NCBI RefSeq assembly: GCF_018977255.1
Contig: NW_024704742.1
Location: 134,666,001 to 134,730,000, forward strand
Length of the DNA stretch: 64,000 nt
Direction: 5' to 3'
Source: Callorhinchus milii
Lineage: Eukaryota
Shown in pieces: positions 1,715 to 38,894 of this stretch. A program made the translations under genes and the position numbers. Numbering within the stretch: the first letter of the stretch is position 1; each line of letters starts with the position of its first letter. Below the pieces are notes generated by a model. It was not told where the DNA came from and made no database searches. It saw only the letters and a program-made list of their open reading frames with translations.

Positions 1715-4700
1715 GATGTGAGTGACAAGTTGTCTCTTCGCTTCCCGAAACTTTACAACACTGGGCAGATGGATTCTCTCTTCAATTACACCAAGTTTTT
1801 CATCAGCCTGTTACACGGCATCTTGATCTCCCTTGTTATTTTCTTTGTACCTTACGGGGCTTTCCTCCAGACCATGGGCCAGGATGGTGAGGCTCCGACT
1901 GATTACCAGTCCTTTGCAGTCACCACAGCCTCCGCCCTCATCATTGCTGTCAATCTCCAGGCAAGTCCAAGCATGTTACCAAGCTCTCGCTGTAATCGTG
2001 ATGTGATCCTCTTGTCTTGTCATTATCATGAGAACCTACTAGCTACACAGCATGGTTGAAGAGATGGGTCTTAAGACAGGGTGTAAAAGGTGGGGAGAGA
2101 AAATTGAGGCGGCAGGATTGTGACCGACATGGAGTTTCAGAGAGAGGGGGCAGAATGGCTGAAAGCTCCCCTGCTGATTGATTGGGTAGATTGGCCGGGC
2201 GGGGAAGCAGTGGGGAGAGAAGCAGCCAGAGTTTGCTAAATGAGCGAGGGAAGGGGGTGGCATGGGGTTGAGATCCCATAGGGTTGCAGGAGGCAGGGTC
2301 GACCAAAACCATGGAGGGATCTGAAATGTGAGGACAAGGATCTTGAATTTGATTTGTTTGTATAAAATTACATTTGTAAAGCGCCTTTCACATCGGGAGG
2401 ACGTCCTGAGGTGCTGGCGCAAGCACTTTCAGAGATAAAACTGGCAAGAAATGAAAGTGAATGTTATGTTGGCAAATATGGTCATGGATTTTCTGTCAGC
2501 AATGTTGAGCTGAGAAACTAATTCATCTTAATTTTCATGAGGAGGATAATTCCAGGGCAAAGTCAATGTTCACAAGCGAGCAAGAGAGATTGCATTTTTG
2601 TAGAGCTTTATCATGTTCAAATATGTTCAGAGCCTTCACAAGAACGTTAGGCAAGCTTCCTTACTCCACATGCCTCTGTTTTGGTAGGAGTTGATTGGAA
2701 CCAGGTTTGGGACGTCCTCCCAGTGTGAAAGGTGCTTTACAAGTATAATTTTGTTGTTGTTGTTAGGGTTATTATTATAAATCCTTCTGATTCCTCCTTC
2801 CATAGATTGCTCTGGACACCTCGTACTGGACATTTGTCAATGCCTTTTCAGTCTTCGGAAGTATTGTGATTTATTTTGCCATCATGTTTGACCTTCACAG
2901 CGCAGGAATCCACATCCTCTTCCCATCATCGTTTACCTTTACCGGTCAGTGCTTCTCTCATGCCCTCTCCCTCTCTCGTGTTGTTACACTCACTCTCTTA
3001 AGTCTGCACTCACGCACACTTATTTTCCTTCTCTGCCGCACGTGTGCTCACACTCTCTTGTGCATGCTCTGCAAGGTGTAAGAGTGTGAAGAATCATGTA
3101 GTGTTACAGCTTGGAAACAGGCCGTTCGACCAACTGGTCCATGCTGGCAATACAATGCAATACAAATTTTGTAATACAGCGTCAATCAAAAGTTCTTACT
3201 CCTTCACCTATATGAGATACTCAAACTGCATTCAATGTTAGACGTTTACACATCATCTCGGTGACAAAAACATTCATGAACACAATGAAAGATGTCTCTG
3301 TAACAGCTACACACTGAGAGATAAATAAAAGAACATAATTAATCAGTAAAGACTTATAGTTCACCCTGTATAGCGTCTTTCACACAACCCAAGGTGTTTG
3401 ACGATACTGGCTTGGCACCCGAGCTGGGTGGGTAGCCAGGAGGGTGGGAGGGAGAAGGTGACTACATTGTCTGAGGTAAAACAACTTGCATTTACATAGT
3501 GCCCATCATGCAGGGTAGAGTCCCAGAGTGATCTTGAACGAGGTGCATGGAAGCATCCCAGGTAGATCTTGAGGAGACGAGTTGGTGGGACTCTGGGATG
3601 GAGTTCCGGAGAGTGAAGGCCCGCCTGCTGATGGTGGGGCGGGTAGAATTGGGGACATGAAGCCAGCGGTGCTTGCTGAACAAAGGGAATGGCCAGGATC
3701 GGGAGGATTTGAGGAGGTCACGGAGGTAGGGTGAGGGCGAGAAGGGAGGCACAAGCCTCTTCCCATCTTATAATCCTCTATTCTCTGGAAGAAGAGAAGT
3801 TTGGGAGGGAGCGAGAGAGATTGACTGACCTCTAGTTACAATATTTTGATGTTTGATAATGGTGTAGAAGTCATATTACATGTTGGAAACCGAGTGCGAC
3901 CAAAAAGCATGTTTAAATGGAGGGAACGAGATGTGCTGAAGTGAGGGTATTTGGACTATCGTTAGAATTAAGATTTTTCACTTGAGCTGGACAAGTAGCA
4001 AGAAAGCTTTCCAGAGAGTGCTTCCAAAGACAAGTTGTGTGGTTTTAGCTGATTGGAATCCAGCAGTAACCCAGCGTGCCCTCAACAACAACAACAACAA
4101 GATTGCATTTATAGAGCGCCTTTCACGTCGGGAGGACGTCCCAAGGCGCTGGACAGTTGGGTCAGGACCCGAGTAGGGGGGAAATGGTCAGGGGGAGGGA
4201 AGGGAGGGAGCGAGGAGGGGGTAGAGAGCCGAGAGGAGAGCTGAAGGCACGGCTGAAGAGAAAGGTCTTGAGAGGAGGAAAGGGAGGAAGCAAGGCACTG
4301 GGGGATGGAGTTCCTCTGAGGTCCCCAAGCCTTAGCACTTGCCAACCTGACCCAATAATTTGTGGAATTAGGTAAACAAGAGAGAGAGAGAGTATTCACA
4401 TTCCAGTCCAACGCAAGGAAATGTGTATGTGGGAATCATGGAACTCTGTTGGGTTTGGAATACTTTTAAACATGGTGATGGGTTTCAGCGTGTCAGACAC
4501 CCGGCTAACAAAAAAAAATTGCCATTAAACTTGCTGGTTCTGAAAGTCTGTAATTATTTTGGATGTTCTTCACTTAGGTGCTGCTCCGAATGCACTTCGA
4601 CAGCCTTATCTGTGGCTGACCATCATCTTAACTGTCGGAATCTGTCTGTTCCCTGTTCTTGCCATTCGTTTCTTCTTGAGGATTACCCGACCGTCAATAA

Positions 4701-7664: not shown

Positions 7665-10600
7665 TTACGGTTTGCAACGCTGAACGAAACGTGGGTACAA
7701 GACGACATCTCTGATATGGTGCCTGTTGAGAAGCCAAGTTAAGAAACGTTCCAGCCCCAATCCATATCCGCCATGTGGACACGTGCCATATTTACGCTGG
7801 GGAGGAAAGAATAAGTAAGTTACTGCGTGAGGATTTACAGAAATCTAACTGGCTGACCTAAATCTAAGTGGCTCTTTGATGAGAAACCCAGACACATTTC
7901 TTAAAGGAAAAGAAAATTGGGCTCTAACTTACCTGGTCAGTGTACCAGTAATATGGAGTGCAATCAATCCCTTCACGTTTGTAACCCTCCAACAGCTCAT
8001 CACTGTCCCAGATACGCATCGATCCTCCCACAATCTCACCAACATTCGGCATCAGAACATCAACCTGGAAAACAGCTCAGATTATAACATCAGAAACCAA
8101 ATTATTCCTTTAGTCCTGTCTACGAGGTTACAAACAAAAACTTCAGGTTTCACAACACACGCACGTTTGGTCTGTAACACAAAGATAGTTTCAATAACAT
8201 TTTCTCTTAAACAAATCAAGTTACACAACGACAATTTACCGAAAATTTGCTCATCCTACTCTTGTCAGTCTCAGTCATTTCAAGAACTGTGGAAAACCTT
8301 CGTCCACACTAAAATTGAGTTCCAACTGATCTTAAACCTTAATAGCATAAAAGTAATGACCGTGAGGAATGCAGACGTCTGGAGTCTTTTCTGAGCTCTA
8401 TTTTATGCAAGCGGCGTATTGGGGGTAATGAGATACCATCCACGTGCACAGCACAGTCTCCAAGACATGGACAAATCCAATATAAAGATTATTAAATTAC
8501 AGGTTACAGTACAACAGCATCAATTACATGCAGCTGTGCAACAGTCAAAGCTGTCAGTTCACCTCATTTATATACAAGTCAGGGAGAGCAAGGATCTGAA
8601 GACAATACTAAGCTTGCTTTCCCTAGTCTAAATCAAAGCCCATTGGCAAACGGCACCAGGACACAGAATGTAGCCTGCACAGATCATTTGGTGATAAATA
8701 AAGTCTGATGATGGCTATAAATCTAAAAGCTCTTTGGAGGACTGCTTCATTTGGGCCAATTCACAGATGTGTTTGACTTCAACGAGCCGCCCACAATGGC
8801 TACACGTGCAACCTAGGCACTGACCGATTCAGTCAGCCTGCGATCCTCAGGGCAGCGCTCCATGTAGAAAGACTTGATCTCAGCAGGGAAGCGACACAGC
8901 AGAATTGGCTCGTTGATCGCGTCGGTCATCATTCTCTCCGGAGCCTCGGGAATATCCTGTGGGAGGAAAACATAACAGGTTGATTTTGTCCAGACACATG
9001 ACTGTTAATAACTGGCCTCGATCACTTTCTCAAGTTCAATATTTACCCTCAAACACAGTCACTCAACTTTACAGTAAATCCTGTGAAGCACTTTGGGACT
9101 TTCATGACGTGAAAGGCACTGTACCAAATACACAGATTACCTTTCCAAACTCTGGATCAAAGCAACAAAGCTCTCTGCCACCTCAATAATTTAGCCCTTT
9201 AATAAACCAGGTGTCACCATACAAATGTGGCAAATAGGATACACAGCACAGATCATCACTGGTATTTCACATAGATTTAACAAGTGATAGGAATAAGTTT
9301 AGCAACATTTTAACAGCAACCCTACCTACAGCACCAAGCCAGCTCTTCAACTTGTTCAGTGCCCTGGCCTCAACCACTCTCCCGACAACCTGTCTGTCGG
9401 TCATCCCTTAGCCAAAGAAATTCTCCCCAGTTTCTGTGATAACATGTCCTTTAGAACTCTGGGAGTCTTGTCCTTTTGCCTTGACATTATTTAAAGCATT
9501 GTTCTGGATTTACTTTCTCCATGATACAGGCTATATACTTGCTAGTGATCATCCCATTGTTTGTTATTCTTGATACGGTAAGTTACAATGCTTGGCTGCT
9601 TCCTCCAAATCAATAGTAAGTATAGTTGCTATTAAGATTTTGCTGAACTTATTCTCATCACTTGTTGAATCTATATGAAACACCAGTGATGATCTGTGCT
9701 GAGTATCCTATTTACCACATCCTACGTCTCTCCCCCCTCCCCCCACCTTTGTAACTACACTGAGTAACCGAGCCATTAATAGGCAACACTAACAGATCAC
9801 AGCATATAACTCAGAGGTGCCCACTGAATACCTCCCAGATTTGAACCTAACCTCCCATTACCACCACCCTAAGCTTCCACCCCCAGGAACAGTTACCAAT
9901 TCACATTCACATCTTACCCTCAAAGACCACTGACAAGTATATTTCTATATCACTTTACCTCTAAATCTCTCTCCTGTCTCACACTGCTCCTCAACCAGAA
10001 CACTCTTCCTCTATCCCTTGCTCCATCCTTCCCGATCTTCAGATCGCGCCTGAAGACCTTCCTCTTCGACCGTGCCTGCAGTCACCTTCCCCCCCACTCG
10101 GCATCATGCTCCGCCACTATCAAGGGCTCCGGGATGTTATAAAAATGCAACACTCACTTCTCCAAACTCGTAGAAAGTTCCATCTTCCTTTTTATAGTCG
10201 TGCTCTTTGAGCCAGGTGATGGCATCAGTGTAGTTCATCCTCCTGAACGGGCGCTTGGGCGGCTGAAATTCCTAAATTAAAAAAAACGCAAAAGAAGACA
10301 TTAACACAGAGACATTCAAGCCAAGTAGCTTCTCCTGATTCTATTGATTTTATTTAGTGGTTATTTAGTTATTTAGTGGTATAAAAGCTGAACAAATGGC
10401 CAGGCTGATATCTTTACACTAAACAGAGAGAGGTTTTCCTGTCACTTACTGGATGCAATTCACGCACAAGATCTCCAAACGGTGACTTGAGAATACGGTC
10501 AACCACGTCACACACCAGATCTTCCAGACGGTTCAGAAGGTCATCGTAGGTAATAAAGGCACATTCTCCCTCAATGTGAGTGTACCTACAAGTTAGAGCA

Positions 10601-13600
10601 CACATAATTGAAGGTGCTCTCACTGCAATTCTACTGCATTAGACTATGTGAATGGCTCCATCCATCATGTCATAAGTGGGGCTCAAAATTGAAACAGTCT
10701 TCATAATAATATGACAATCCTTGCATTTGATATAGCACCTGATCACGTCTTTGAGACGTCTCAAAGCTCTTCACATAATATACTGTAAAGTGAATTGACT
10801 GTATATTTTGTGTGCGATTCGCAGCAGCCAATTGCGTACAGCAGTGTCCACAAACAGTCATGGATTGAAGTGACCACTTTATTATTGTTTTATTTTTTGA
10901 AGGAATTACTATCCCTGGAAAAGCGATCCGCCAATCGACTAACAACCAGGTTCCTACTTACTCCTAGATAAACAGAATTGTGTGGAGTAAGGAAACTTGT
11001 CAATGATTCGCTCTGCCAGGAATCAAAACCAGGTCTCTTGCTTGCAAGGCGAGTGCTCTATCCACTGAGGTACAGGACTGCATAAACTTATAAACAGAGT
11101 TTTTGAGAGACATGGCCCAGAGCTAGTGAAAACAAAACTAAGTTTGTAAATAACGCATTTACAGGAAAACAAGAATATTGTGCTCTGAATAACAAACCAC
11201 CTTCTTTGGCAAAGTAATAATAATAGTCTTTGTATTTGAAATAGCATCTTGTCACATTATTGAGACATCTCAAAGCACTTTGTAGAATTGATTGTAAAGT
11301 GGATTGACTGGGTGTATTCTGTAGGTGAAACCCGTCAGCCAATTTGTGCACCATCGTGGATTGAGTGACCAAATTCCTTTTTGGTGGGATTATTAACCCC
11401 GGAAAGGAAAACGCACAGCAATGTCCCACAAACAGTCGTAGATTGAAAATGACCAATTTATTATTGTTTGTTGGTTTTGGAGGGATTATTATTAGGCTCT
11501 GTGTGGAGTAAGGTAACTTGCCCACGAGGTTTCGCCCTCTGCCGGGAATTGAACTCAGGTCTCTCACTTGCAAAGCGAGTGCTCTAACCACTGAGCTACA
11601 GGACTCCATGATAAACACTTTAACAATGGCGGACACTGAGCCGGGGAAAGAGGGGAGATGAGCGTAGGTACGATCAAAAAGGAAGGTCTTCGTGTGAGAT
11701 CTGAAGATGGGTAAGGAGGGAGCAAAGTGGGGATTGAGGCTGGGAGTTTTGAGGTTTAGTGGCTGAAAACACGGCTGCTGATGTAGTGGAAGGGCTCGAG
11801 GGATGTAAAGATGGCCCAATTCATTGTGTTTGTGTGTGTGGTGGTGGATGGGGGGAGGGGCTGAGGGTGTGAGAGATTAGCAACACTTTCTATATAATAC
11901 TCGTTTTCCTATAAATGCCCTATTTCTTATCTTAGTTTCATTTTCACTTAGCCGTTTGGTCTCTTGGCAAAACTTCTGTTAATAAGTTCTTTTTATCCTT
12001 CAGGTCAAGTACTCTCTATGTCTCACTGGAATCTTGTGCTCTGAATAACAAACCACCTTCTTTGACAAAGTAATAATAATAGTCTTTGTATTCGAAATAG
12101 CATCTCGTCACATTATTGAGACATCTCAAAGCACTTTGTAGAATTGATTGTAAAGTGGATTGACTGGTTGTATTCTGTGGGCGAAACCCGTCAGCTAATT
12201 TGTGCACCATCGTGGATTGAGTAACCAAATTCTTTTTTTGTGGGATTATTAACCCCGGAAAGCGATTTGCCAAATGACTACCAACCGTTTTCCAACTTAC
12301 TGTTAGGTAAACAAGTTCTAGGCGTGTGGAGAAACTTGCCTATGGTTTTGTCCCGCCTGGAAATTGAACACGGGTCCTAACCGGGCTAACCATAATTCAC
12401 TGCTGTTTTCGTGTTCATGAACCAATAGTTTAATAGCAACACAATAGAGCATGACAGTTAAGGAATGTAAATGCTCACAAAAAAGAAAGGTTACTGACTC
12501 TGCAAGGTGTCTACGTGTCCGAGACTGTTCAGCACGATAGGACTGGGCGATGCAGAAAACATCCCCAAGGGAAGGCAGGCAGGTCTCCAAGTACAGTTGA
12601 GAAGACTGGGTCAGAAAGGCTTCCTCTCCAAAATAGTTCATTTTGAAGAGAGTGGAACCTCCCTCCACCTGTGTCTGCACCAATGTCGGTGGAGTGATCT
12701 GGAGGATTAAAAATACATCAACCAAAATGCTCAGTTGCTTCAACATGTAGAAATTAAACGCTTCTCCTCTCACGTACTGTCATAGTTGGGTGTTCACTTG
12801 TGGCCAGGCAATGTGAACCCAAAGAGCAACAACAACAAAATGGATGGGTTAGAAAGATGAATTTCTAACCCTTGTGGAACCCTTCTAATCTTCTTGTAAG
12901 TAAGGACTTTTAACTCTCAGTCCAGTCTGACACCCCCAATACAGTGCTGAGGGTGTGCTGCATTGTTGGAGGTGCCGTCCTTCAGACGAAACAAACATCT
13001 GCCCCCCCCCCCCCTTGCACACTTAGCACAAAGAAGACGGCAAGTAACGTACCTCAAAGTAGCCGCGGTCAAAGTAGTGGTCCCTAAAGCACTGTATCAG
13101 TGCGGATCGTACTTTGAAAATCTTGGACATGTTCTCCCCTCTCAGCATCATGTGACGATTGTTGAGCTGCACGTCTACGTCAGATTCCTCGTTCAGCAAA
13201 TTGTCTGCACCTCCAGGTGGGGCCAGGCCGATCAGCTCCCAGTAATCACAGATCAATTCGTGCCCACCAGGAGCCTGAGGAAAGAGTCAAGGCACCACTT
13301 TAAAGCAGAAGTGGATGCATAGAAAGGAACATCTTTCCTCATCAAAGCCCTCACTGGTTTTCATTTGCCCTTAAGTTAACTACATTAATAATACACTCAG
13401 TCTCCCTTTCATTCACACAGAAAGTGCATAGTTGAAAAAAACTGCACGTTGTCAATATTTGAAAAGACATCAATGCTTAAAAAGTTGCTGCCAATTTATT
13501 TTTTGAAGATACTAGAAACCACGGTGCACTTATATAGCGCCCTCCATGCAGGGTAGTGTCTCAGAGCGCTTAACAGTGGCGGAGCCCGACTCCAAACCTG

Positions 13601-16600
13601 GGGGACGGGGGAGGTGGCATAAGCACGGTCGAACAGGAAAAGTTTTCAAATAGGACTTGAAAGAGAGGAGATTCTTCATTCAAGAGAAGATTGATTCTGG
13701 GCTTGGGATAAAACACAGCTCAGTCAGAGGTTGGAATAGGAGCAAGATGTGCATGAGACAAATTATCCGGGTTGTTCTTTTTCCTACACTTTTCTTATGT
13801 GTTCATCATATCCTTACCATCTTCCCTTCTGGTACAATCTTCAAGGTACCATAAAGTGCAACGGAGCTCTCTGTGGACAGGACCAGTGCATTGTAACATT
13901 GACACTGCAAGAGGAAAAGCAGAATTGTTTTACGTTCTGATGAATTGCATTTAAAACACACGTACTCTTTACCGTAGTTTGTGGGTAAATACAAACACAA
14001 CAGAAAACGCACCCAACTCTGGTTGTACATATCAAATTAATTAGCGATCCCAAAATGTTTTTATATTATTGCAAGCAATGATTGTATTGCTAAAGTGAAC
14101 AAAAAAAATCACACGATTAAGGCAGTTGTTGAACACCTTGAGTGTTGAACACTTGTATTGGTAATGTGCACCATACTTTATACAATTTAATGAATTTTGC
14201 ATTTAATGAATTGTAATAAAGAAAACATAAGGCTCTTTACCAGCTCATCACTGAGTACACACTGCAGGAATCCTGTGCCATCTCGCAGAATCACAAACAT
14301 CAAGTTCTTTCCTGTAAAGACAAACGTTACAGTCATCACCTTTCCTAATAGCAAACATTTGTCTTACTGTTTAAAGTGTAATACAACAACAATCCTTGGA
14401 TTAATGCAGAACACTCATCTCCATGCTTCAGGGCATCCAAACCACACAAGGTGGATACCATGGGGTGGGATAGCTGGCCTGGGAGAAAATTACTTTCTTT
14501 TTCCAAAGAGATGATAGCAAATCATAACTTGTAACACTATTACCAACATTTTAAATAACTGACTCAACAGTATTTTCGATATTTTAAAAGAGAAAAGAAT
14601 TTATAAAGTATGTACAGCACGGAAACAAACCACTTGGCTCAAACAACCCATTCCGGTATTCATACTCCCAACCAATCTTCCCCCATTCCTTATTCTCTCT
14701 CACACCTTTCGATTCCCCCCTCCCTCATGTCACGGTCTAGCGTCCTCTGAAGGCTTCTACAATAGTTGATTCAACCACCGCTTCAGATGGCAAGTTCCAA
14801 AATCCCACTATCCTCTGCGTTCTTTTTTAGATCCCCTAATCTCTCTTATACTTGTGTCCCCTAGTTACAGATCCCCAACCAGGAGACATAGCCTATTTAT
14901 GTTCAACTCATTAAACCATTTTATAATTGTAAACACCTCTATCAGGTCCTCTCTTAAATATCTCCTCTAGCGAATAAAGGCCTAACCTATCCAGGCTATC
15001 CTGATAGCAGTAACCTGCCAGCCCTTGTAAGATCCTCATAAACATAATACATTAAACATAATGTGGTCAAACCAAGGTTTTATATAAATTCAACATCACC
15101 TCCTTACTTTTATATTCTAGCCCTCTGGATATGAAGCCAGACCCCATTGGCCCTTGTACTAGCCTTATCTACCTGTGGAGCTACATTTAGAGATTTTGGG
15201 ATCTGAATCTCCAGATCTCTTTGCTGCTTTACTCCTCCTAGGTTCCTATCACCTAGACTCACCCACCCCCCCACCACACACCCACATCCCACACCCATTA
15301 CCTACATGTGTAGAAAGAAACAGAAAACAATTACAAGAACTGAGTAATGTTTCCACCCTAGAAATAATCTCAAAGGCAGAAATCGCACCTTGTCTGCGTA
15401 ATCTATGAATCCAGCCAAAGATCTTCACTCGCTCCCCTCGATGAGCTTCAGTGTCTCGTATTTTCACCTGCAGGAAAGAAATTCAAAGTTTATCCGCATC
15501 CAACACATTCCAGATACAGGCACATTTCTGTCCCAAACACAAATCCACAAAGCAGTATAAACAGTGTTACTTTGAGGGAAAAGCCACAAAAGCTTAATAG
15601 AAGTGTAAACGCAGATTTCCAGGGCAGCACACAATTTATTAGCAAGCTCAGAAGAGGGAAAGGGAATAGACAAGTTGAGATCCCATTACTTTTAATGAGA
15701 GCAGTGAATACATGGAATGGATTCTAAGGGAGGCAGTGGAGGCTGACTGCATCAGCAAATTTAATAGATAATTATGTGACACAGAGATTGATTTAAGAGA
15801 CAAGAGATAAGAGCAGTGCACATTTCTTTTAAAGAACTCTTGAGATCACCAGATGAACCTCAGTTTCTATTCCACTCCTTTGTAATCCTATTGCTGTGAG
15901 CAATTATTGTCTTTATACTTACTAACTGAACGTGTATTTTTGTGCCAATGAGCGATTGGTGATGTGTCAGGTCTTTCCCACAAATATCAAGTCCTGCTAA
16001 GGGCTCAGACACCTTCAATGTGCACAGAACCACATCAGTTCATTCACTGATGGATAAGAAAGTAGAAACATGTACCGAACCCATGTCTAAGTCACAGTCC
16101 TGAAAGGATTATCTCAATATTTGAGTTAAAAGTTAATTTTTTTCCCCACAAGGCCCACCAAACTTCAAAGTCATCAGGCTTCAACCAGACTGTACAGGGC
16201 TCTTGTCTGGAAAGGATTGCTCACCAGTTGAAGAGGACTGATGCACTGTTACTTTTCAAATATTACTTACCAACTTTGGCTCTGGAAGACTGGGGTCCAG
16301 TTTAATGACTACCTTTCTGGCCTCTTCCAGATTCTTCTCTCGGCGTAACGCATCTTCAATCTGTTGAGAGTGATATTCGTTTTAAAATAATAAAGGTTGA
16401 ATTTGGCATCCTATAAACCATGTGTTGATAGGAGCACCCACTCGCCTGTACCACAAGATCTTTGGTTCCTGAGGGCACGGCAGCTCTGATGATGCAGTGG
16501 TTAGAGCTGCAACTTACAAACAGGAACTTTCTGCTTCAAACCACAGTTCTTGTTGAGTTTGGTGTTCTCAGATCTTGTTGCATGGGGTAATAATAATAGT

Positions 16601-19600
16601 TCTTGCATTTGATATAGCACCTGATCACGTCATTGAAATATTTCATAGCGTTTCACAGAATATATTGTAAAGTGGAGTGACTGTGCATTTTGTGGGCAAA
16701 ACGTGGCAGCCAATTGACTAAATTAGTTAAATTAAATTGGGGTGGCTAAATTAGGCTCTACCTCCCTAACTCACAGGGATAAGAAGGTTAAAATAGGCCA
16801 GGTTACCCATCCTAGTCTCTCTTTGGAACCCACCACTGTAGTGTACGTATGGCAGCCGTGTGGGGAGAGTCAGGCTTAGATGTGACACCCTCTACAATCG
16901 AGGCAGGATTGACAGTTTCACCCCAATCGCAACCTCTGTGGGTTCAGAGAATGCAATTAGTATTGAATTACATACAGCAATGTGCCTGGACTGTGCCCTC
17001 TAGGAATTAGTCTGCCCAAAATAATTTTGCTTACAATACATAAATCAGGGGTCGGTTTCAATATTTATTGTCCCCACACCTTATTCAAAGGTTGATTGTC
17101 AGCCTGTGCTGACTGAGGCAGGAATTTTGAGTGCTACACGCCTCTATCCTTAAACTACTTCCCTCTCTCTACCCCTTTGTCACTCCCACTTCCCATCAGT
17201 TTTTAAGTCCAGCCTTAAAACCTACTCCTTCTCCACAAGGCCCACGATCACACAGAAGCCTTCTAACACACGTTAGGAACTGACACTGAAATGCTCTTGG
17301 AACTAGACAGCAGGAATAGAGAAAAAAACCTTCATATTCTGATCATTAGTAAAGGAAACAGAGTATGTCAGAGCGGACTACTAATATGTCAAAAGTGTAT
17401 GAATGACTACTCGCACACTTTTCTGTTAACACTCACCTCTTTTTGGGCTGCTGTTTCATTCTTCACCTGTCCTCGTTGACAGAGCTTCTTGAGATTTTTC
17501 AGCTGTGTGTTAGATATAACATCCCAGCGCTGAAAGATAGATTATTGCACTATTAAATGTGGCCTTGCAATATGTGAACTTACTGTGAATGTGATCGTCT
17601 CACTGGAAGTAGAAGGGTTAACTTCACTCTATTATGGCAGTAACAAGGTGATTATCTTAACCCCCTATTTCTTCCTTGCTCTCTCAATTCCCTCCCATAC
17701 TTGCAATGAGCCAAGTTTGTACGTCTGTACTGATGAAGCATTCTCACCAGGACATTGATAGAAGCAGCGACACGTGCTTCATTGCAAAAGTCAATGTATT
17801 TGTTAACTATTGGCAGGTTTACCTAAAATGCAACCTTGCTACATCGACTGACATCAATCCCCTTCCATAACTCCAGATTCCCAACTAATGTGTGTTTGTA
17901 CAGTTTGATCTATCGCAGCGTTGTCCAATGCGTTAGTCACACGTAGCGATTGGGAATCCAGAGGTGGTGAAATTGTATTTTGATCAGTAAATAAAAAATG
18001 AGTAACAGCCATCGTCATTGGACATGTGATCGCAAAACTCGTATTCACACGACATATGTATGTGTACTTTGATGTTTTGGTATGCTTGTTGGTAAAATGG
18101 TAAGCAACATGTGAATGTTTTATGATTGTTGTGTATGCTTTACTTCCTCGGTTATTGCTTGTTGGTTATCGGCTAAAACAGTATGTAACACGATTGAAAA
18201 CGCCGGATCTAGTGCGGCTCACAAAAGAAAATAGATGTTTAAGTAAAAATACATGTAAACATACATGCAGTGCATTTTTTCCTTTATGTTTCATTGTGTA
18301 AGTAAGGCATTTTCTACTAACATTAGTGCATGTGGCTAAAACAGAGTTGTCCTTGGCACACCCGTGGCATTAGTTCTTTGCATGTTCATACGCATGGTTT
18401 GGAAAAGCTAAAGCAAAAGGAAACACACTGTACCTCGCCTTCCTTTTGGGAATCCACGTAAATAGTAGGGAATGGCTCCTTCCCAAATGCAGTCAGTGCC
18501 TAAAAGACAGAAACGAAATGAATGCAAGGGTCACGAGAACATTTAAAATGAAACAGAAGCTCTTCCTCTTTGAAAACACAAAGCAGAATTAATTTTTGTT
18601 TTTTTACCTGAAGAGCTGTCTTGAACGGTTTCTCTTTCGTTCCTGTGCCTGCTGAATCATCCCCTTCACGATCAGACACGTACAGTTCATCTACAAAATA
18701 TTAATTCTCAATCTTTTAGTTGTCGAGAGGAAAAGCAGCAGCAGTTATTGTGTCCATCAAAAGACCTTTTTGGGGGAACAATATTAACAACAACAACAAC
18801 AACAAGATTCCATTTATAAAGCGCCTTTCACGTCAGGAGGACGTCCCAAGGCGCTGCACAGTTGGGTCAGGACCCGAGCAGGGGGGAAATGCTCAGGGTG
18901 AGGGGAGGGAAGGGAGGGAGCGAGGAGGGGGAAATGGTCAGGGTGAGGGGAGGGAAGGGAGGGAGCAAGGAGGGGGGGAAATGGTCAGGGTGAGGGGAGG
19001 GAAGGGAGGGAGCGAGGAGGGGGAAGAGAGTCGAGAGGGGAGCTGAAGGCTCGGTCAAAGAGAAAGGTTTTGAGACCGGCCTTGAAGGAGGAAAGGGAGG
19101 AAGCGGCGAAGGCACTGGGGGAATGGAGTTCCAGAGCCTGGGGGCTGAGAGGCTGAAGGTCCGACCACCGATGGTAGGGCGATTGGGGCGGGGGACGTGG
19201 AGCAGACCGGAGCCGGAGGAACGGAGGGTACGGGCAGGTAAGTAGGGGGATAGTAGGTCAGAGAGGTAGGAGGGAGCAAGGCCGTGATGGCCTTATAGGT
19301 GAGGATGAGGATCTTGAAATCAATCCTCTGGGGGATGGGGAGCCAGTGGAGGCGAGTGAGGGTGGGAGTGATGTGGTTGCGGTGCCTGGTGTGGGACAGT
19401 ACACGAGCTGCAGAGTTCTGAGTGACCTGCAGCTTGTAGAGGGAGTGGCGGGAAGGCCGGCGAGGAGAGAGTTCCCATAGTCCAGCCTTGAGGTGACAAA
19501 CGCGTGGACCAGGGTTTTAGCAGCGTGAGGGGTGCTTACCAGTGCTTCTTTACTCTGCCCCCCAGCTCTGTAAATTACCTACAAAGCAACCAACCTCAGT

Positions 19601-21196
19601 GGACGATATCTTCCCCTATAAATAACACTTCAACTGCCCTCTCCCTCCCATAAAACAGCTACTGAATTTCTTTCTCTGTATCACTGATGTCTAACTCCCA
19701 TCCCTGATATTCAAGAGAACAGTCTGCTCCTTTCAATCACTGGGAAAGTGAAAGAGGGAATGCCAAATCCCTAATAACAAAAGGGGAGAGTGATACCACC
19801 AATAACCAGGGGGCTGAAATGCGAGACGAAATGTAAATCCCCAAACCTATTCACCCAGGGGTATAAGTATTGCCCTGGCCCCGATAAGCAAGCGGGTAAA
19901 GGGTAACACCCAATAGCTAAGGGGCTAAACTGGGGCAGGGGAAGATGTAAAACAACAAAAAATTATATGTATACCAACACCTTTCATATCGGAAAGGGTT
20001 TGCAATCAAGAGGGGTGGAGGGTGGGGTTAAAATCCCTGGCAACAAAAACGATGATGGGAAAATGGAGACTGTAAACAACAACTTGCATTTATATAGTGC
20101 CCTTCACGTGAATTAGCATCCTGAAAAGCTTAACAGTGGCAGAGCCTCACATCAAGCCAAGCTAAAGGAGGAGGTGGCCGGAAGCACAATCGAAAAAAGG
20201 TCATCAGTTGTGATCTAAAAGAGCGAAAGAAGAGAGCAAGGCGGAGGGATTGAGGGTTACGCGTTGGGTACGCTTTGTTACTCCACAAGCCAGTTTACCT
20301 CGCAGTAAGTAGGAACCCAATTGCTAGTCGATCGCAAGTCTCTTATCTCTTTCTGCCCCACCTATCTCTCTCTCCCCCTCTGATCTCTCTCTTTCTCCCT
20401 CCAAAAAGGAAAAAAATAATTTGGTCACTTAATCCACAACTGTTTGTGGGACACTGCTGTGCACAATTGGTTGCCATGTTTCGCCCCAAAAATGCAGTCA
20501 ATGCACTTCACAGTATATTCTGTGAAGCGCTTTGCGATGTGTCAAAGACGTGATAAGCACCTTATCACGTCATTGAGACATCTCAAAGCGCTTCACAGGA
20601 TATACTGTAAAGTGAATCGACTGTATATTTTTATTATTATTATTTGTGGGCGAAACGCGGCAGCCAATTGGGCACAGCAGAGTCCCACAAACAGTCGTGG
20701 ATAGAAGTGACCAATTTATTTTTATTTTTTTGAAGGAATCATTAGACCACAGAAAAACAATCTATCAATCGACTGACAACCGGGTTCCTGTTTACTGCTG
20801 GGTAAACAGAGGCGTGTGGAGTAAGGAAACTTGCCTAACATTTCAATCTGCCGGGAATCGAACCCTCTGACTTGCGAGGCGAGTTCTCTAACCACTGAGC
20901 TACAAGACTCACAGATAGAGAGGCAGTGTGAGAACCTAATAATATTATCACTAATATTAATAATTACTTCTATGAATAATTATCTTAACAATATAAAAGT
21001 GTTACTATGAATAATTACTAGTAACGATAACCTTAATAACACTTTTAACAGTAGTACTGCGAATAGTTATTACTATTAATAATTATCTTAACGACAATAT
21101 TAACAGTATTACTAGCAATAATAATAATAAGAATAGACCTGATCACTTACCCAGTGACAGCTGAGCCGTCTGTTTGCTCACGTCCCTGCCAGGCAT
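7665..21196 (-). CDS. NARS1: Cytosolic asparaginyl-tRNA synthetase, copy A (inverted duplicate), 15 coding exons, 560 aa, intact ORF
   Basis: Minus-strand exons 21196-21151 ([15 protein letters not shown]), 18690-18608, 18499-18434, 17529-17437, 16360-16271, 15467-15389, 14311-14241, 13904-13818, 13274-13053, 12698-12499, 10585-10450, 10271-10158, 8956-8825, 8064-7933, 7796-7665 (…[10 protein letters not shown]). All introns are GT-AG, and the exons sum to 1683 nt with no stops or frameshifts. Class IIb motifs are present ([34 protein letters not shown]), as is the ELYVSD N-terminal extension of cytosolic NARS1. Confidence 0.95.
10705..11080 (-). mobile_element. tRNA-derived SINE, long form (NARS1 copy A intron 10)
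   Basis: Reverse-complement head, linker, core and tail. Confidence 0.75.
11410..11608 (-). mobile_element. Young SINE, head and partial core (3'-truncated)
   Basis: Near-identical to the short-form SINE head. Confidence 0.75.
14610..15260 (-). mobile_element. CR1-like LINE fragment in NARS1 copy A intron 6
   Basis: ORF remnant [27 protein letters not shown] resembles the CR1 ORF2 C-terminus; absent from the 82-bp copy B intron. Confidence 0.65.
18787..19535 (-). mobile_element. 5'-truncated L2 LINE, specific to NARS1 copy A intron 1; contains a ~45-bp purine-rich tandem triplication (18880-19030)
   Basis: Same L2 family as 37512-38326; (CAA)n tail on the plus strand. The homologous copy B site at ~26875 is empty. 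Confidence 0.88.
20557..20910 (-). mobile_element. tRNA-derived SINE, long form (copy A intron 1), abutting a plus-strand SINE remnant at ~20270-20555
   Basis: Head …gagctacaagactc, linker and core, recognised in both orientations. Confidence 0.72.
20935..21135. repeat. AT-rich low-complexity repeat at the start of copy A intron 1
   Basis: Degenerate aataattac/tattaat units. Confidence 0.7.
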
Positions 21197-21516
21197 GACT
21201 CTGGGCTGTTTGTGCTGCTGACAGGCGGACGGTGGTGGAGGAGGAGAGGAACACAGAACACACTGAGGCTCGAGAGGAAATATAATCTGTGCATAAATGT
21301 GGTTCAAACCCAATATATAAACCCAATGAGAGAGACACGGGCCCTCCTACAATCACAACCCCTCCCACACCGGCTCCACCCGCCAAACACCCCCTCATCT
21401 CCCCCCACCCCACAGCAGGTCAGGCAGCATCTATGGAGAGAGCAAAGCGAGTTGACATTTCGGGTCAATGACAATTTGTCGGAACAATTCGCCGCCCACT
21501 GCTCCCACTTTCACTT

Positions 21517-21525
21517 GTTGCATCA
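21517..21525 (-). promoter_or_regulatory. AARE/CARE (ATF4-C/EBP composite) element TGATGCAAC upstream of NARS1 copy A
   Basis: Minus strand reads ggcTGATGCAAC, sharing 11 identical bases (ggctgatgcaa) with the copy B element; ~320 bp upstream of the copy A ATG. Confidence 0.6.
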
Positions 21526-22884
21526 GCCTCCCCCAAAAAATCAGAGAGCATTCTGGAGACCCGCGAATGGAAAAGGGACTTTCCGTTTACAGCACAGCTT
21601 GCAGATTGAGGAAGGAAAAGGGAAGGAAGAAAACAATACGTGGAAATCTAATGCTGTGATTATCAGGGCCAGATTAAGGGATGTGGAGGGGGGGGGTCTA
21701 AAACAGATCACAATTGCGTACTCTTTGAACTGCACGGGCAAAATATGCAACAATACCGTTCTAAAATACTTCCTTCCATTGCTTGTAAACATACACAATA
21801 TAAAATTACGTTTGTATAGCGTCTTACACGTTTGGAGGGCATCCCAAGGCGCAGGTCAGGGATTTGGACCCGAACGGGGGGTGGGTGGGTGGGGGTTGGA
21901 TTAGGGAGCGCGGAGAGCAGGACGGTGGCCAAAGGCGTGGTCGAAGAGCTCATCCCGCTCCTCGTGCGGAGGAGGGGGGGGGGGGGGGCGGTTGGTGTTT
22001 GTGGGCGCGGAGCTGGCGAGGGGAGGCTCGGGTTGTGGTTGTGGGAGGGGCCGTGTCTCTCTCATTGGGTTTAAATTTTAGGTTTGAGCAACATTTATAG
22101 AGATATACCTACATACTAACTTTGTGTGACTGATGTACAAGAACATCCAAATCCCTCTGAACACCAACACTACCTAGTCTTTCCCCCTCTAGAAAATAAT
22201 CTGTTTTCTATGTTTACAACCTAGGTGAAAACTTCACACTTCCTACAATATACTCCATATGCCACCTTCTTGCCCACTCTCCTAGTCTGTCTACTTCCCT
22301 TTGCATTCTTCGTGTGTCATCCTCATCGCTTACTCTCCCACCTATCTTCGTACCGTGGCTTGTCTAATCGTTGCTCATTCTTCTATTATTGGGGGTCATC
22401 TTACATCCTATCTGCTGTCTCTAGGGCCTGGGTAGCCCCCTTATAAGGCAGTGACCAAAATTATATGCAGTCCTTCAGTTGAGGCCTAATGTATATAGCT
22501 TGAGTAAGACGTCTGGTGATCCCAACTCTACTGATTTAGCAATATAGCTAGAATTCTGTTGTTTATTGCTGCTTCAAGCTCATCCTAAACACCTCTCTCT
22601 GTCAGATCCAACCAAGGACCTGTCTACATCTTCTTCAGGATGTCACTTTTTGGAAAGAGAAGGGAGTTTCTCCCTGTATCCTGGCCAACAATCTATCGCA
22701 TTAGTAAGCAGTCTTTCACCTCATAGCTGTTGTCTGACCTTGCTAAGGGTAAATGGCTGCTGCATTTGTCTATTAACAATTCCTTTGCTTCACAGTAATT
22801 TTTGTGAAACGCTTTTGAGATGCTTTAATGCAACATTATAAAATACGGGTTCTTCTTCTTCTTCTTCTTCTTCTTCTGCCTTCC

Positions 22885-23380
22885 CCCACCTCCGCAACAT
22901 CTCCCGGCTCTGCCACTGTCTCACACCCTCAGGCCGCTGAGACTCTCATTCGAGCATTCATAACATCCAGGCTTATGCAAACTCCTTGCTTGTCGGCCAC
23001 CCCAACTTCTCCCTCCACAGGCTGCAGATCACCCAGAACTCTGCAGCCCGTGTCCTCTCCCGCGCCAGGCTCCGCGACCCTATCGCCCCCGTCCTCACTC
23101 GACTCCACTGGCTTCCCATCACACAGAGGATACAGTTCCAAGATCCTGGTCCTCACCTTCCAAGCCCTCCATTGCCTCGCACCCCCTTATCTCTGAGACC
23201 TCCTAAGCCCCTACTATCCTGGTCGCTCCCTCTGCTCAGCGCCTCAACATTGGCGGGCGGGACTTCTGCCACTCCGCCCAAACCCTCTGGAACTCCATCC
23301 CGCAGTCCCTCCGCCCTCGCCCCGGCCTCCTTCAAGACCCGTCTTGACGACCCTCTTCTTCGACCGTGCTTTCGATCTCC
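22885..23380 (+). mobile_element. L2 LINE fragment in the inter-NARS1 spacer
   Basis: [53 protein letters not shown]. Confidence 0.85.
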
Positions 23381-23399
23381 CCTCCTCCTCCTCCCCACC

Positions 23400-23795
23400 C
23401 CTGCCCCCAAGCCTGAGCCCCCGAACCCCAGCCCGAACCCCCCAGCCCCAACCGCCCACTCCCAGTCAGAGCACCCGAGCCCCCCAGCCCCAACCGCCCA
23501 GACCCCCAGCCTGAGCCCCGAGCCCCCCCAGCCCCCAGCCAGAGCCCCCAGCCTGAGCGCCCCAGCCCGAGCCCCCCCAGCCCAGAGCCCCCCAGCCTGA
23601 GCGCCCGAGCGCCCCAGACCCCCAGCCCGAGTCCCCAGCCCCCAGCCCGAGACCCCAGCCTGAGACCCCCAGCCCGAGACCCCAGCCTGAGACCCCCAGC
23701 CTGAGACCCCCTGCCCCCCGCCCCAGCCCGAGCGTCCCAGCCCCCAGCCCCCCCGGCCCCAGCCCCCCCAGCCCCCCCAGCCCCCCGGCCCCAGC
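23400..23795. repeat. GC-rich minisatellite of CCCCAGCC(C/T)GAG-like units
   Basis: Degenerate tandem units visible directly, upstream of the copy B CpG island. Confidence 0.85.
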
Positions 23796-23799
23796 TCGG

Positions 23800-24330
23800 G
23801 TCCACGGCGCTGACTGTCCGGCGTGAAAGGCCCTTTACGAAATATAACCAAACATGAGGGACAATCATGACTGCAGTCTCCCCCTCCCCTCCCCTCCGCG
23901 CCCCCCACCCCGCGGGGCCACGTGTCCGGGCCGCCCTCCTCGTGGCTGATGCAATCAGCGGGGCGGCTCTTGCTGAGCCAACGCAACTTGATCATCGGGT
24001 GCGCCGGGACTGCGCAGGCGCTCGGGGGGCGCGAGAGGGGCGGGGCCAGGTGCCCGTCACTCCACCCCACCCCTCGTCCAATAGGCGGCGAGGACGTGGC
24101 GGTTTCCACCGCCGCCCCGCCCCCCTCCGGGCCAGCAGGTTAGGTTGCGGGCAGAGCCGGCGAGGCTGAGATTGTGGGCGGGGCCGTCTCTCCCTCTCCC
24201 TCTCTCTCCAGTGCTTTACCTTTCACCCCCTCCTCCCTCTCCCCTCTCACTCTATCGCAGCTCAAACAGCCCAGAGGAGTCATGTCGGCCGGGGACGCGA
24301 GCGAGCAGACGGCGCAGCTGTCACTGGGTA
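23800..24330 (+). promoter_or_regulatory. CpG-island promoter of NARS1 copy B: E-box CACGTG (23919-23924), AARE/CARE TGATGCAAT (23947-23955), GC boxes, CCAAT (24078-24082)
   Basis: Very GC/CpG-rich segment directly upstream of and including exon 1; motifs read directly from the sequence. Confidence 0.75.
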
Positions 24331-30300: not shown

Positions 30301-33300
30301 CATCTGGTGATCTCAAGAGTTCTTTAAAAGAAATGTGCACTGCTCTTATCTCTTGTCTCTTAAATCAATCTCTGTGTCACATAATTATCTATTGAATTTG
30401 CTGATGCAGTCAGCCTCCACTGCCTCCCTTAGAATCCATTCCATGTATTCACTGCTCTCATAAAAAGTAATGGGATCTCAACTTGTCTATTCCCTTTCCC
30501 TCTTCTGAGCTTGCCAATAAATTGTGTGCTGCCCTGGAAATCTGCGTTTACACTTCTATTAAGCTTTTGTGGCTTTTCCCTCAAAGTAACACTGTTTATA
30601 CTGCTTTGAGGATTTGTGTTTGCGACAGAACTGTGCCTGTATCTGGAATGTGTTGGATGCGGATAAACCTTGAATTTCTTTTCTGCAGGTGAAAATACGA
30701 GACACTGAAGCTCATCGAGGGCAGCGAGTGAAGATCTTTGGCTGGATTCATAGATTACGCAGACAAGGTGCGATTTCTGCCTTTGAGATTATTGCCTAGA
30801 ACCTTTCTAGGGTGGAAACATTACTCAGTTTCTGTAATTGTCTTTGCAGGAAAGAACTTGATGTTTGTGGTTCTGCGAGATGGCACAGGATTCCTGCAGT
30901 GTGTGTTCAGTGATAAATTGGTACAGAAGCCTATGTTTTCCTCCTTATTAAGATTCATTAAATAATATTGCTTAAAGTGTGGTGGTTATTACCAATGCAG
31001 GTCTTCATAACTCCTGCCTTAACCTTTAGGAAATAACATAATGGGATAAAATACATAAGTAGCTTGGGACATATCCGGAATGCGAACTAGATGGATCTTG
31101 GTCTTTTTTCATCTAGCATTTCTTATGTTCTTAACCGTGTTCACAGACTGTTCACTTTAGCAACACAATCATTGCTTGCAATAATATAAATATTTTGGGA
31201 TCACTAATTAATTTGAAATGTACCTCCTTACTTGGCTGTGTTTTATGTTGTGTTTGTATTCCAAACAATTTAGCCGCAAACCATGGTAAGTGTTTGTTTT
31301 TAAATGTTATTCATCAGAACGTAAAACAATTCTGCTTTTCCTCTTGCAGTGTCAATGTTACAATGCACTGGTCCTGTCCACAGAGAGCTCCGTTGCACTT
31401 TATGGTACCTTGAAGATTGTACCAGAAGGGAAGATGGTAAGGATATGATGAACACATAAGAAAAGTGTAGGAAAAAGAACAACCCGGATAATTTGTCTCA
31501 TGCACATCTTGCTCCTATTCCAACCTCTGACTGAGCTGTGTTTTATCCCAAGCCCAGAATCAATCTTCTCTTGAATGAAGAATCTCCTCTCTTTCAAGTC
31601 CCATTTGAAAACTTTTCCTGTTCGACCGTGCTTATGCCACCTCCCCCGTCCCCCAGGTTTGGAGTCGAGCTCCGCCACTGTTAAGCGCTCAGAGACACTA
31701 CCCTGCATGGAGGGCACTATATAAGTGCACCGTTGTTTCTAGTATCTTCAAAAAATAAATTGGCAGCAACTTTTTAAGCATTGATGTCTTTTCAAATATT
31801 GACAACGTGCAGTTTTTTTCAACTATGCACTTTCTGTGTGAATGAAAGGGAGACTGAGTATTATTAATGTAGTTAACTTAAGGGCAAATGAAAACCAGTG
31901 AGGGCTTCTGATGAGGAAAGATGTTCCTTTCTATGCATCCACTTCTGCTTTAATGTGGTGCCTTGACTCTTTCCTCAGGCTCCTGGTGGGCACGAATTGA
32001 TCTGTGATTACTGGGAGCTGATCGGCCTGGCCCCACCTGGAGGTGCAGACAATTTGCTGAACGAGGAATCTGACGTAGACGTGCAGCTCAACAATCGTCA
32101 CATGATGCTGAGAGGGGAGAACATGTCCAAGATTTTCAAAGTGCGCTCCGCACTGATACAATGCTTTAGGGACCACTACTTTGACCGCGGCTACTTTGAG
32201 GTACGTTACTTGCCGTCTTCTTTGTGCCTCGTGAGCAAGAGGTTGACAGTAAATCTGGTGCAGCAACTTCTGAATAATCTTTCAACTGTGCAACTGTGTG
32301 TGTGGGGGGGTGGGCAGATGTTTGTCTTGTCTGAAGGACGGCACCTCCAACAATGCAGCACACCCCCAGCACTGTATTGGTGGTGTCAGACTGGACTGAG
32401 AGTTAAAAGTCCTTACTTACAAGAAGATTAGAAGGGTTCCACAAGGGTTAGAAATTAATCTTTCTAACCCATCCATTTTGTTGTTGTTGCTCTTTGGGTT
32501 CACATTGCCTGGCCACAAGTGAACACCCAACTATGACAGTACGTGAGAGGAGAAGTGTTTAATTTCTACATGTTGAAGCAACTGAGCATTTTGGTTGATG
32601 TATTTTTAATCCTCCAGATCACTCCCCCGACATTGGTGCAGACACAGGTGGAGGGAGGTTCCACTCTCTTCAAAATGAACTATTTTGGTGAGGAAGCCTT
32701 TCTGACCCAGTCTTCTCAACTGTACTTGGAGACCTGCCTGCCTTCCCTTGGGGATGTTTTCTGCATCGCCCAGTCCTATCGTGCTGAACAGTCTCGGACA
32801 CGCAGACACCTTGCAGAGTCAGTAACCTTTCTTTTTGTGAGCATTTACATTCCTTAACTGTCATGCTCTATCGTCTTGCTATTAAACTATTGGTTCATGA
32901 ACACTAAAAACAGCAGTGAATTATGCAGGAACAATTTTAAGTTAACTCGGCAGCTCAAAATTTAAGGCTGTTCAATTGGTTTAAAAAACAGCTATTGACT
33001 TTATTCAATTAAGTTCACACTTAATTCACACTTTATTCAATTAAGTCCACACAGGTTTTTTGATCGTTTCGAATCATTTTCGAATTGCACATCTTGTTTT
33101 GTAGTCTATATACAGTAAACTCCTGATAACATCACTCCAAGGTAAAAGAGTCCCATAGTGTAGTGGTTAGGACCCGTGTTCAATTCCCGGGCGGGACAAA
33201 ACCATAGGCAAGTTTCTCCACACGCCTAGCACTTGTTTACCTAACAGTAAGTTGGAAACCAGTTAGTCATTTGGCAAATCGCTTTCCGGGGGTAATATTC

Positions 33301-38860: not shown

Positions 38861-38894
<34 letters not shown>

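Follow-up and report, generated by a model that had tools for sequence, protein, structure and literature searches.

We analysed a stretch of 64,000 nucleotides (nt) of the Callorhinchus milii genome (contig NW_024704742.1, positions 134,666,001 to 134,730,000, forward strand), hereafter the window, which contains two copies of NARS1, the gene of the cytoplasmic asparaginyl-tRNA synthetase (AsnRS). Self-comparison of this 64-kb window revealed an inverted duplication, in which roughly 7.4–21.2 kb corresponds to 24.3–40.7 kb, and the NARS1 pair lies head-to-head within it, flanked by ATP8B1 and FECH. Copy A runs from 21196 down to 7665 on the minus strand, and copy B from 24282 up to 40466 on the plus strand. 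Models of GT/AG-bounded exons gave 15 exons, 560 amino acids (aa) and no internal stops for each copy, and the lengths of all 15 exons are equal in A and B. A genome-wide DNA search with exon 10 (991.5 Mb) found two matches, both inside the window.

Copy A is identical, letter for letter, to the database protein NP_001279862.1 (P0006) and copy B to XP_042191908.1 (P0007), while two further C. milii entries, K4GHP7 and K4FSQ1, agree with A at 17 of the 17 sites that differ between the copies. The best protein hits for both copies are labelled Callorhinchus milii. Both proteins are already named asparagine-tRNA ligase (NARS1) in NCBI and the sequences of the pair are not new; no paper on this pair was found in open-access full text. 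Three domains were found above the cut-off in both copies, in the same order and at the same coordinates: PF20917 (AsnRS_N) at aa 33–122, PF01336 at aa 140–220, and PF00152 at aa 238–553. The AsnRS_N score was 97.4 bits in A and 99.4 bits in B. R334, E336, and R534 (motif 2 / motif 3) did not vary among the 30 aligned sequences, A and B among them, and correspond to R322, E324, and R522 of the human enzyme (PMC10831071, PMC12513289). In a tree of 22 sequences based on aa 16–560, the other 20 sequences formed one clade with a bootstrap value of 100%, so each copy has the other as its nearest relative. Branch lengths were 0.0153 for A and 0.0083 for B.

Four sequencing runs were compared over positions 13000–32900 of the window. 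Three were RNA-type runs from two studies ("RNA" being the tool's guess), and each of these contained both A-specific and B-specific joints of exons 2 and 3 with canonical ends. No spliced exon 2–3 joint of either copy was present in the fourth run. The tissues of the runs are not given, and the contig depth of the joints is not suited to ranking the expression of A and B. Several A/B blocks are 97–100% identical, as they might be if two haplotypes had been set side by side, or if A were a decaying pseudogene. However, the introns differ by up to 14% and include kilobase copy-specific blocks, whereas in single-copy stretches run X11 disagrees with the window at only about 0.5% of positions (16 in 3339 nt, records 9–13). 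Intron 3 contigs of X11 are specific to A (depth 8.3) and to B (depth 7.7), and the depth is about double (13–14) where A and B are near identical. In addition, both frames are open and both are spliced. The artefact reading is already contradicted by these data, and we regard it as extremely improbable. Our results indicate that, at the level of sequence and splicing, both copies encode a full cytoplasmic AsnRS, and both are probably active enzymes.

A preliminary description of this stretch had listed 17 substitutions between the two proteins (B to A): S2P, A3G, G4R, A6V, E8K, R43Q, Y48F, V78L, W82C, A91T, Q138E, V160I, F172L, K175E, N416D, T442A, and V540L. All of them were confirmed from the exon models, and so were their counts, with 10 in aa 1–96, 14 in aa 1–176, and 3 in aa 177–560. 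Codon 82 is TGG in B (28659–28661) and TGT in A (17481–17479), and alignment to PDB 8tc8 and 4zya verified that a Trp is present at the equivalent human position (W70, in KKMWHREQ). The features of the two copies are as follows.

21151..21196, minus strand: copy A exon 1, coding part (leader, aa 1–16); S2P, A3G, G4R, A6V, E8K; 8 of 46 nt differ, 5 of these 8 at CpG sites of B
18608..18690, minus strand: copy A exon 2 (aa 16–43); R43Q, a CpG transition
18434..18499, minus strand: copy A exon 3 (aa 44–65); Y48F
17437..17529, minus strand: copy A exon 4 (aa 66–96); V78L, W82C, A91T; flanking introns 13% diverged from B
17479..17481, minus strand: Cys82 codon TGT (Trp TGG in B; human W70), covered by RNA-type contigs in X1 and X3, which show 0 other letters here
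16271..16360, minus strand: copy A exon 5 (aa 97–126); 0 of 90 nt differ; inside a 274-nt identical run (16519–16246)
15389..15467, minus strand: copy A exon 6 (aa 127–153); Q138E
14312..15388, minus strand: intron 6 of copy A, 1077 nt long (82 nt in B), with a copy-specific block of about 1 kb adjoining the diverged exon 7
14241..14311, minus strand: copy A exon 7 (aa 153–176); V160I, F172L, K175E; 6 of 71 nt differ, flanks 13.6% diverged
7665..13904, minus strand: copy A exons 8–15 (remaining OB fold, hinge, catalytic domain); N416D, T442A, and V540L only; identical runs of 293 nt (13945–13653) and 378 nt (9613–9236)
24282–24327, 26971–27053, 27157–27222, 28611–28703, 29796–29885, 30689–30767, 30850–30920, plus strand: copy B exons 1–7
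31350..40466, plus strand: copy B exons 8–15

The preliminary description had concluded that the divergence is concentrated in the N-terminal extension and the anticodon-binding region. This holds for the counts, but half of the changes assigned to the extension (5 of 10) are in the exon 1 leader (aa 2–8), upstream of both the Pfam AsnRS_N domain and the part that can be aligned with the human protein (from aa 15), and most of the anticodon-binding ones (3 of 4) are within a single exon of 71 nt, exon 7. Under a uniform spread over the protein, the P value was 2.2e-5 for 14 of 17 changes in aa 1–176, a boundary that was picked after the data were seen, and 1.3e-4 for 10 of 17 in aa 1–96. Another 20 codons differ purely synonymously, and there are 23 synonymous steps once codons 2, 8, and 175 are resolved.

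The divergence between the two copies was found to be patchy. It ranges from 1 to 14% per intron, with introns 8 (1.1%) and 5 (2.6%) at the low end and introns 3 (12.8%) and 7 (13.8%) at the high end. In a test that excluded intron 1 and the repetitive core of intron 10, there were 395 differences in 6419 aligned intron sites, and 0 of 10,000 permutations were as clustered as the data. The longest stretch free of mismatches spans 385 sites, where the permutations averaged 102, and there are unbroken identical runs of 378, 293, and 274 nt. Exon flanks (at most 100 aligned bases per side) are 12.4% diverged for exons 1–4 and 7 and 5.5% for the other ten exons (heterogeneity P 1e-10). Exon 7 of A, the most diverged internal exon, is placed between the A-only block of about 1 kb in intron 6, in which we noticed by eye fragments possibly related to long interspersed nuclear elements, and a length difference in intron 7. 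Exon 5, on the other hand, is fully homogenised, although it lies within the AsnRS_N domain.

This mosaic resembles the concerted evolution described for the adjacent paralogues BMP8A/B (inverted), DDX19A/B, and TUBG1/2 (Carson and Scherer 2009, PMC2720389), where blocks of exon and intron with more than 97% identity stand beside diverged ones. Two features used in that work were found here, namely copies less than 1 Mb apart with more than 97% identity across consecutive exons and the intron between them (exons 5–6 with intron 5, 97.4%; exons 8–9 with intron 8, 98.3%), and clustered homogenised versus diverged blocks. In those pairs as in this one, the converted blocks do not match domains cleanly. 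Unlike those pairs (PMC2720389), the NARS1 pair was examined in one species, and its arms are only 3.1 kb apart at the starts. The patchy identity is the pattern expected of gene conversion between inverted arms, with tracts ended by insertions; the clustering is plain from the alignment, and conversion would be its cause.

Intron 12 of both copies carries a 105-nt inverted repeat of about 86% identity (9225–9329/9616–9720 in A and 36923–37027/37314–37411 in B), and these repeats bracket the longest A/B identical run, of 378 nt. We also considered two signs of conversion in the sequencing runs and rejected both. Mosaic contigs of X11 (record 8 had 8 other letters in a stretch that holds 25 A/B diagnostic sites) could be taken for polymorphic tracts, but they have double depth and may reflect collapse of the copies by the assembler. 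Read variants that match the base of the paralogue (19 of 32 checked) could be taken for ongoing conversion, but about half would be expected to match if the other allele were the older state.

The expected distribution of replacements was derived from orthologues. Among 164 proteins, 155 are not from C. milii; 104 of them have 545–565 aa, of which 99 passed the alignment filter and 5 were dropped. An elasmobranch set comprised 23 sequences of 560 aa, four of them near identical to skates, other lengths or N-termini being excluded. By parsimony, which underestimates changes at fast sites, 48.9% of the changes among the 99 vertebrate orthologues and 50.3% of those among the 23 elasmobranch sequences fell in aa 1–176, and the 16-residue leader alone accounted for 13% among the 99. 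Of the close pairs, only 1 of 206 among the vertebrates and 1 of 20 among the elasmobranchs had an N-terminal share as high as that of A and B; in one ordinary orthologue pair (P0179/P0180), 7 of 8 differences were in aa 1–176.

No single factor was enough to explain the skew. With the orthologue rate alone, 8.3–8.5 of the 17 changes would be expected in aa 1–176, and a P value of 0.005–0.007 remains. Conversion alone was rejected, as exon length multiplied by local divergence leaves P 0.0013 for 14 of 17. CpG decay was rejected too: it accounts for only 4 of the 14 N-terminal replacements (G4R, A6V, E8K, and R43Q, each a transition at a CpG of B), and CpG transitions in the opposite direction make up 2 of the 3 C-terminal ones. 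The account that the preliminary description had set against its own was full explanation by lack of conversion and CpG decay in the 5′ exons, with synonymous divergence equally elevated. Synonymous divergence is indeed higher towards the 5′ end, by 1.7-fold, but pN (nonsynonymous differences per site) is 10-fold higher. Escape from conversion is therefore not sufficient by itself, and a weaker N-terminal constraint is also needed.

A model that multiplies orthologue rate by flank divergence gave 8.7–9.5 expected changes in aa 1–96, against 10 observed (P 0.34–0.50), and 10.8–11.2 in aa 1–176, against 14 observed (P 0.08–0.12; low power with 17 events). The per-exon goodness of fit was P 0.67 for this combined model, 0.01 for the rate only, and <0.0001 for the uniform spread, and the rate-scaled changes per exon track flank divergence (Spearman 0.77, P 0.0007). 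Under this combined model, the N-terminal skew would need no change of function.

We therefore consider it probable that the skew is largely a product of ordinary duplicate-gene evolution, namely older unconverted sequence in combination with weaker constraint. NARS1 would have undergone an inverted local duplication in the chimaera lineage, after which B kept the ancestral place and orientation and A was the head-to-head daughter. Conversion between the inverted arms may then have reset blocks of both genes to near identity, while those beside copy-specific insertions or poorly alignable introns (exons 1–4 and 7) would have escaped it and retained an older divergence. These exons encode the least constrained part of the protein (the leader, the appended N-terminal domain UNE-N, and the start of the OB fold), where more mutations would persist as replacements.

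Several observations weigh against this interpretation. The 14 of 17 changes are still above the expectation of the combined model. Synonymous divergence differs only 1.7-fold between aa 1–176 and aa 177–560 (0.080 and 0.048; P 0.16), and the contrast of replacement and synonymous changes (14/10 against 3/13) has a Fisher P of 0.022, or 0.14 after allowing for orthologue rates. A multi-step duplication could also produce patchy identity. Neither protein search had another holocephalan NARS1 among its best 120 listed hits. Moreover, at eight sites (2, 3, 4, 8, 82, 91, 138, 160) the residue of A was found in 0 of the 23 elasmobranchs while that of B was present, and W82C and V160I affect sites that are aromatic or Val, respectively, in 99 of 99 orthologues.

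The parentage of the two copies bears on this asymmetry. The neighbouring features, including the spacer between the start codons, are given below.

1715..1963, plus strand: ATP8B1 exon (phospholipid-transporting ATPase IC, E 5e-36), neighbour
21197..24281, no strand: spacer between the start codons, 3.1 kb; the 5′ untranslated region of B runs from at least 24128 and that of A from at least 21290
62840..63650, plus strand: first two PF00762 matches of FECH, neighbour on the same strand as copy B

Copy B is co-oriented with both neighbours, the ATP8B1 exon and the FECH exons all being on the plus strand. We take human FECH, NARS, and ATP8B1 to be likewise on one strand. Their order in human is FECH, NARS, ATP8B1 (PMC7349262). 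The start region of B has a GC content of 71% (23751–24250), with an observed/expected CpG ratio of 0.71; that of A has 46–52%, with a similar ratio. B also retains the leader residues S2 and G4, which are present in 22 of 23 and 23 of 23 elasmobranch sequences. This synteny and orientation, the promoter composition, and the shark-like leader suggest that B is the parental copy and A the inverted daughter. A third, partial, inverted copy of the 5′ upstream sequence of A was found in the spacer (22030–22098, plus strand, against 21293–21361; 69 nt, 88% complementary, 668 nt apart), and may be a scar of the fold-back event behind the duplication. C-rich degenerate tandem repeats lie upstream of the B promoter (23400–23790) and at the start of B intron 1 (24340–25000), and A is without a counterpart.

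To polarise the changes against vertebrate orthologues, as had been proposed, we used tallies of the 23 elasmobranch sequences in place of formal ancestral states. Against the eight sites of A listed above, there were two (175 and 540) at which the B residue was absent and that of A present; both residues occurred at six sites and neither at one. The ratio of nonsynonymous to synonymous differences per site (pN/pS), from pairwise A/B counts in windows with synonymous changes, was 0.53 for aa 1–16, 0.39 for aa 17–96, 0.31 for aa 153–176, 0.43 for aa 1–176 (below neutrality, P 0.04), and 0.07 for aa 177–560. It was below 1 in every region tested, and the ratio of substitution rates (dN/dS) above 1 by which positive selection is recognised was not found.

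Alternatively, the leader and UNE-N of A may have been freed in part from a constraint, in tRNA anchoring or a secondary interaction, that still acts on B, with selection and conversion keeping the catalytic half of A intact. On this view, W82C would deprive the last UNE-N helix of an aromatic side chain, with a mild loss of stability that A tolerates. In aa 1–176 the tallies give eight A-specific residues and one B-specific residue (sign test about 0.04), the branch of A is the longer one, and the start region of A is much less GC-rich. At position 82, 92 of the 99 orthologues have W and the other 7 have F; in the elasmobranch set, W occurs in 23 of 23. In mammals, daughter copies tend towards a gain of promoter methylation (de la Fuente et al. 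2024, PMC11683416), and A shows a similar asymmetry in being out of the ancestral orientation, in its start composition, in the CpG loss of exon 1, and in having most of the copy-specific residues. Unlike the daughters of that pattern (PMC11683416), however, A is not obviously silenced, as it is spliced in the same three of three runs as B. Four of the eight A-specific residues are in the fast-evolving leader, two of them CpG transitions, and outside the leader the tally is 4 to 2; for the whole protein it is 8 to 2 (P about 0.11). The AsnRS_N score of A is hardly lower than that of B, and B too is altered at an invariant site (V540, where 99 of 99 orthologues have L). As the explanation of the skew such a partial loss of constraint is unlikely, but a mild relaxation of the N-terminus of A is plausible.

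Of the changes at constrained sites, only W82C is radical. The invariant positions 160 and 540 are altered conservatively, by V160I in A and by L540V in B. V78L, one helical turn from residue 82, could compensate for W82C. Predicted structures of A had a mean pLDDT (predicted local distance difference test) score of 32.3 without an alignment and 47.5 with 30 sequences (52–59 in UNE-N blocks), too poor to judge the effect of W82C. Together with the asymmetry towards A, this substitution leaves a functional difference between the copies possible. Besides these differences, one contig of run X9 has A>G in codon 55 of B exon 3 (window position 27190), giving T55A at a near-invariant UNE-N position, which is possibly a segregating variant.

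The preliminary description had reasoned that the copies share catalysis and may differ in moonlighting or tRNA binding. Shared catalysis is supported by the identical catalytic motifs and by the pN/pS value of aa 177–560. The distribution of the changes lends no support to the second part, as the excess is no longer significant under the model of rate and intron divergence and pN/pS is below 1. A stronger form of this idea would be that selection drove UNE-N and the OB fold of A away from those of B for a new extracellular or tRNA-binding role, blocking conversion in those exons and favouring it in the catalytic and dimer domain. The unconverted blocks do coincide with the N-terminal domains. 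W82C, a radical change, is carried by three proteins of the database, P0003, P0004, and P0006, and was seen in two RNA-type runs. However, pN/pS is 0.39–0.53 in aa 1–16, 17–96, and 1–96, and the skew is consistent with the null model of rate and flank divergence. Exon 5 is homogenised within AsnRS_N, and whole introns, which are non-coding, are as diverged as the exon flanks; the block boundaries therefore follow insertions, not domains. The OB-fold residues R150, F158, Q169, and E211, which we take from other class IIb synthetases to contact the anticodon, are unaltered, being invariant in 30 of 30 aligned sequences and the same in A and B.

The chemokine-like activity of UNE-N has been linked to CCR3-mediated chemotaxis in human and, for Brugia malayi AsnRS, to interleukin-8 receptors (PMC6883034, PMC7014954), and UNE-N may anchor tRNA too (PMC12513289). 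The domain is common to both C. milii copies, where it is known from sequence. Receptors of the CXCR1/2 group are listed for elephant shark, but the CCR1/3 group is tabulated for mammals only, being absent in elephant shark and all surveyed non-mammals (PMC3568907, Table 2, based on a fragmentary 2012 genome). A new chemokine-like role of A finds no support here, nothing linking the substitutions to signalling, and we consider adaptive divergence of A very improbable. There is a slight chance that two AsnRS isoforms are maintained in the chimaera for a purpose. Conversion and selection would then hold the catalytic and dimer domains near identical so that A/B heterodimers work, and UNE-N of A (C82, L78, T91, E138, I160) would have taken on a different signalling or tRNA-anchoring role. 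If true, this would be a natural split of the moonlighting of a vertebrate synthetase from its housekeeping function.

Apart from its duplication, the pair agrees with the cytoplasmic NARS1 of vertebrates (class IIb; PF20917, PF01336, and PF00152; human PDB 8tc8 and 4zya) in domain order, motif 2/3 arginines, and locus between ATP8B1 and FECH. C. milii has two intact head-to-head copies, whereas the elasmobranch database proteins among our hits show one product per species besides isoforms. KLMT-1 of Caenorhabditis tropicalis, a neofunctionalised synthetase duplicate, also arose by duplication of an essential synthetase gene (PMC13192637). In contrast to KLMT-1, which is reported to have lost its role in translation (PMC13192637), the two C. 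milii copies differ by three residues in the catalytic domain, with the low pN/pS given above.

In our reading, weak constraint and patchy conversion in this pair together mimic a domain-specific functional divergence of paralogues. A uniform null is the wrong comparison for such a skew, which calls for caution in paralogue studies. W82C offers a modest lead, as this expressed variant occurs naturally at an otherwise aromatic site and has a near-identical sister enzyme as control; the pair would permit a clean test of the last UNE-N helix in stability, tRNA anchoring, or signalling.

Other observations concern the surroundings of the pair. A tRNA-like short interspersed nuclear element (SINE) occurs in young copies that are 92–97% alike, at 28067–28386, 53659–53988, 55298–55627, and 57686–57953; the first is in intron 3 of B and absent from intron 3 of A. 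The segment 52786–52820 on the plus strand, in GC-rich sequence, has an ATG with a GT donor after it and is the likely first coding exon of FECH; the first Pfam match lies about 10 kb further downstream. Among the protein hits (P0080, P0081, P0084, P0137, P0161), the NARS1 entries of Molossus molossus include both "cytoplasmic" and "cytoplasmic-like" ones, on contigs of equal length, and "-like" entries occur for hamster and slow loris as well. These mammalian entries are possibly independent duplicates or retrocopies.

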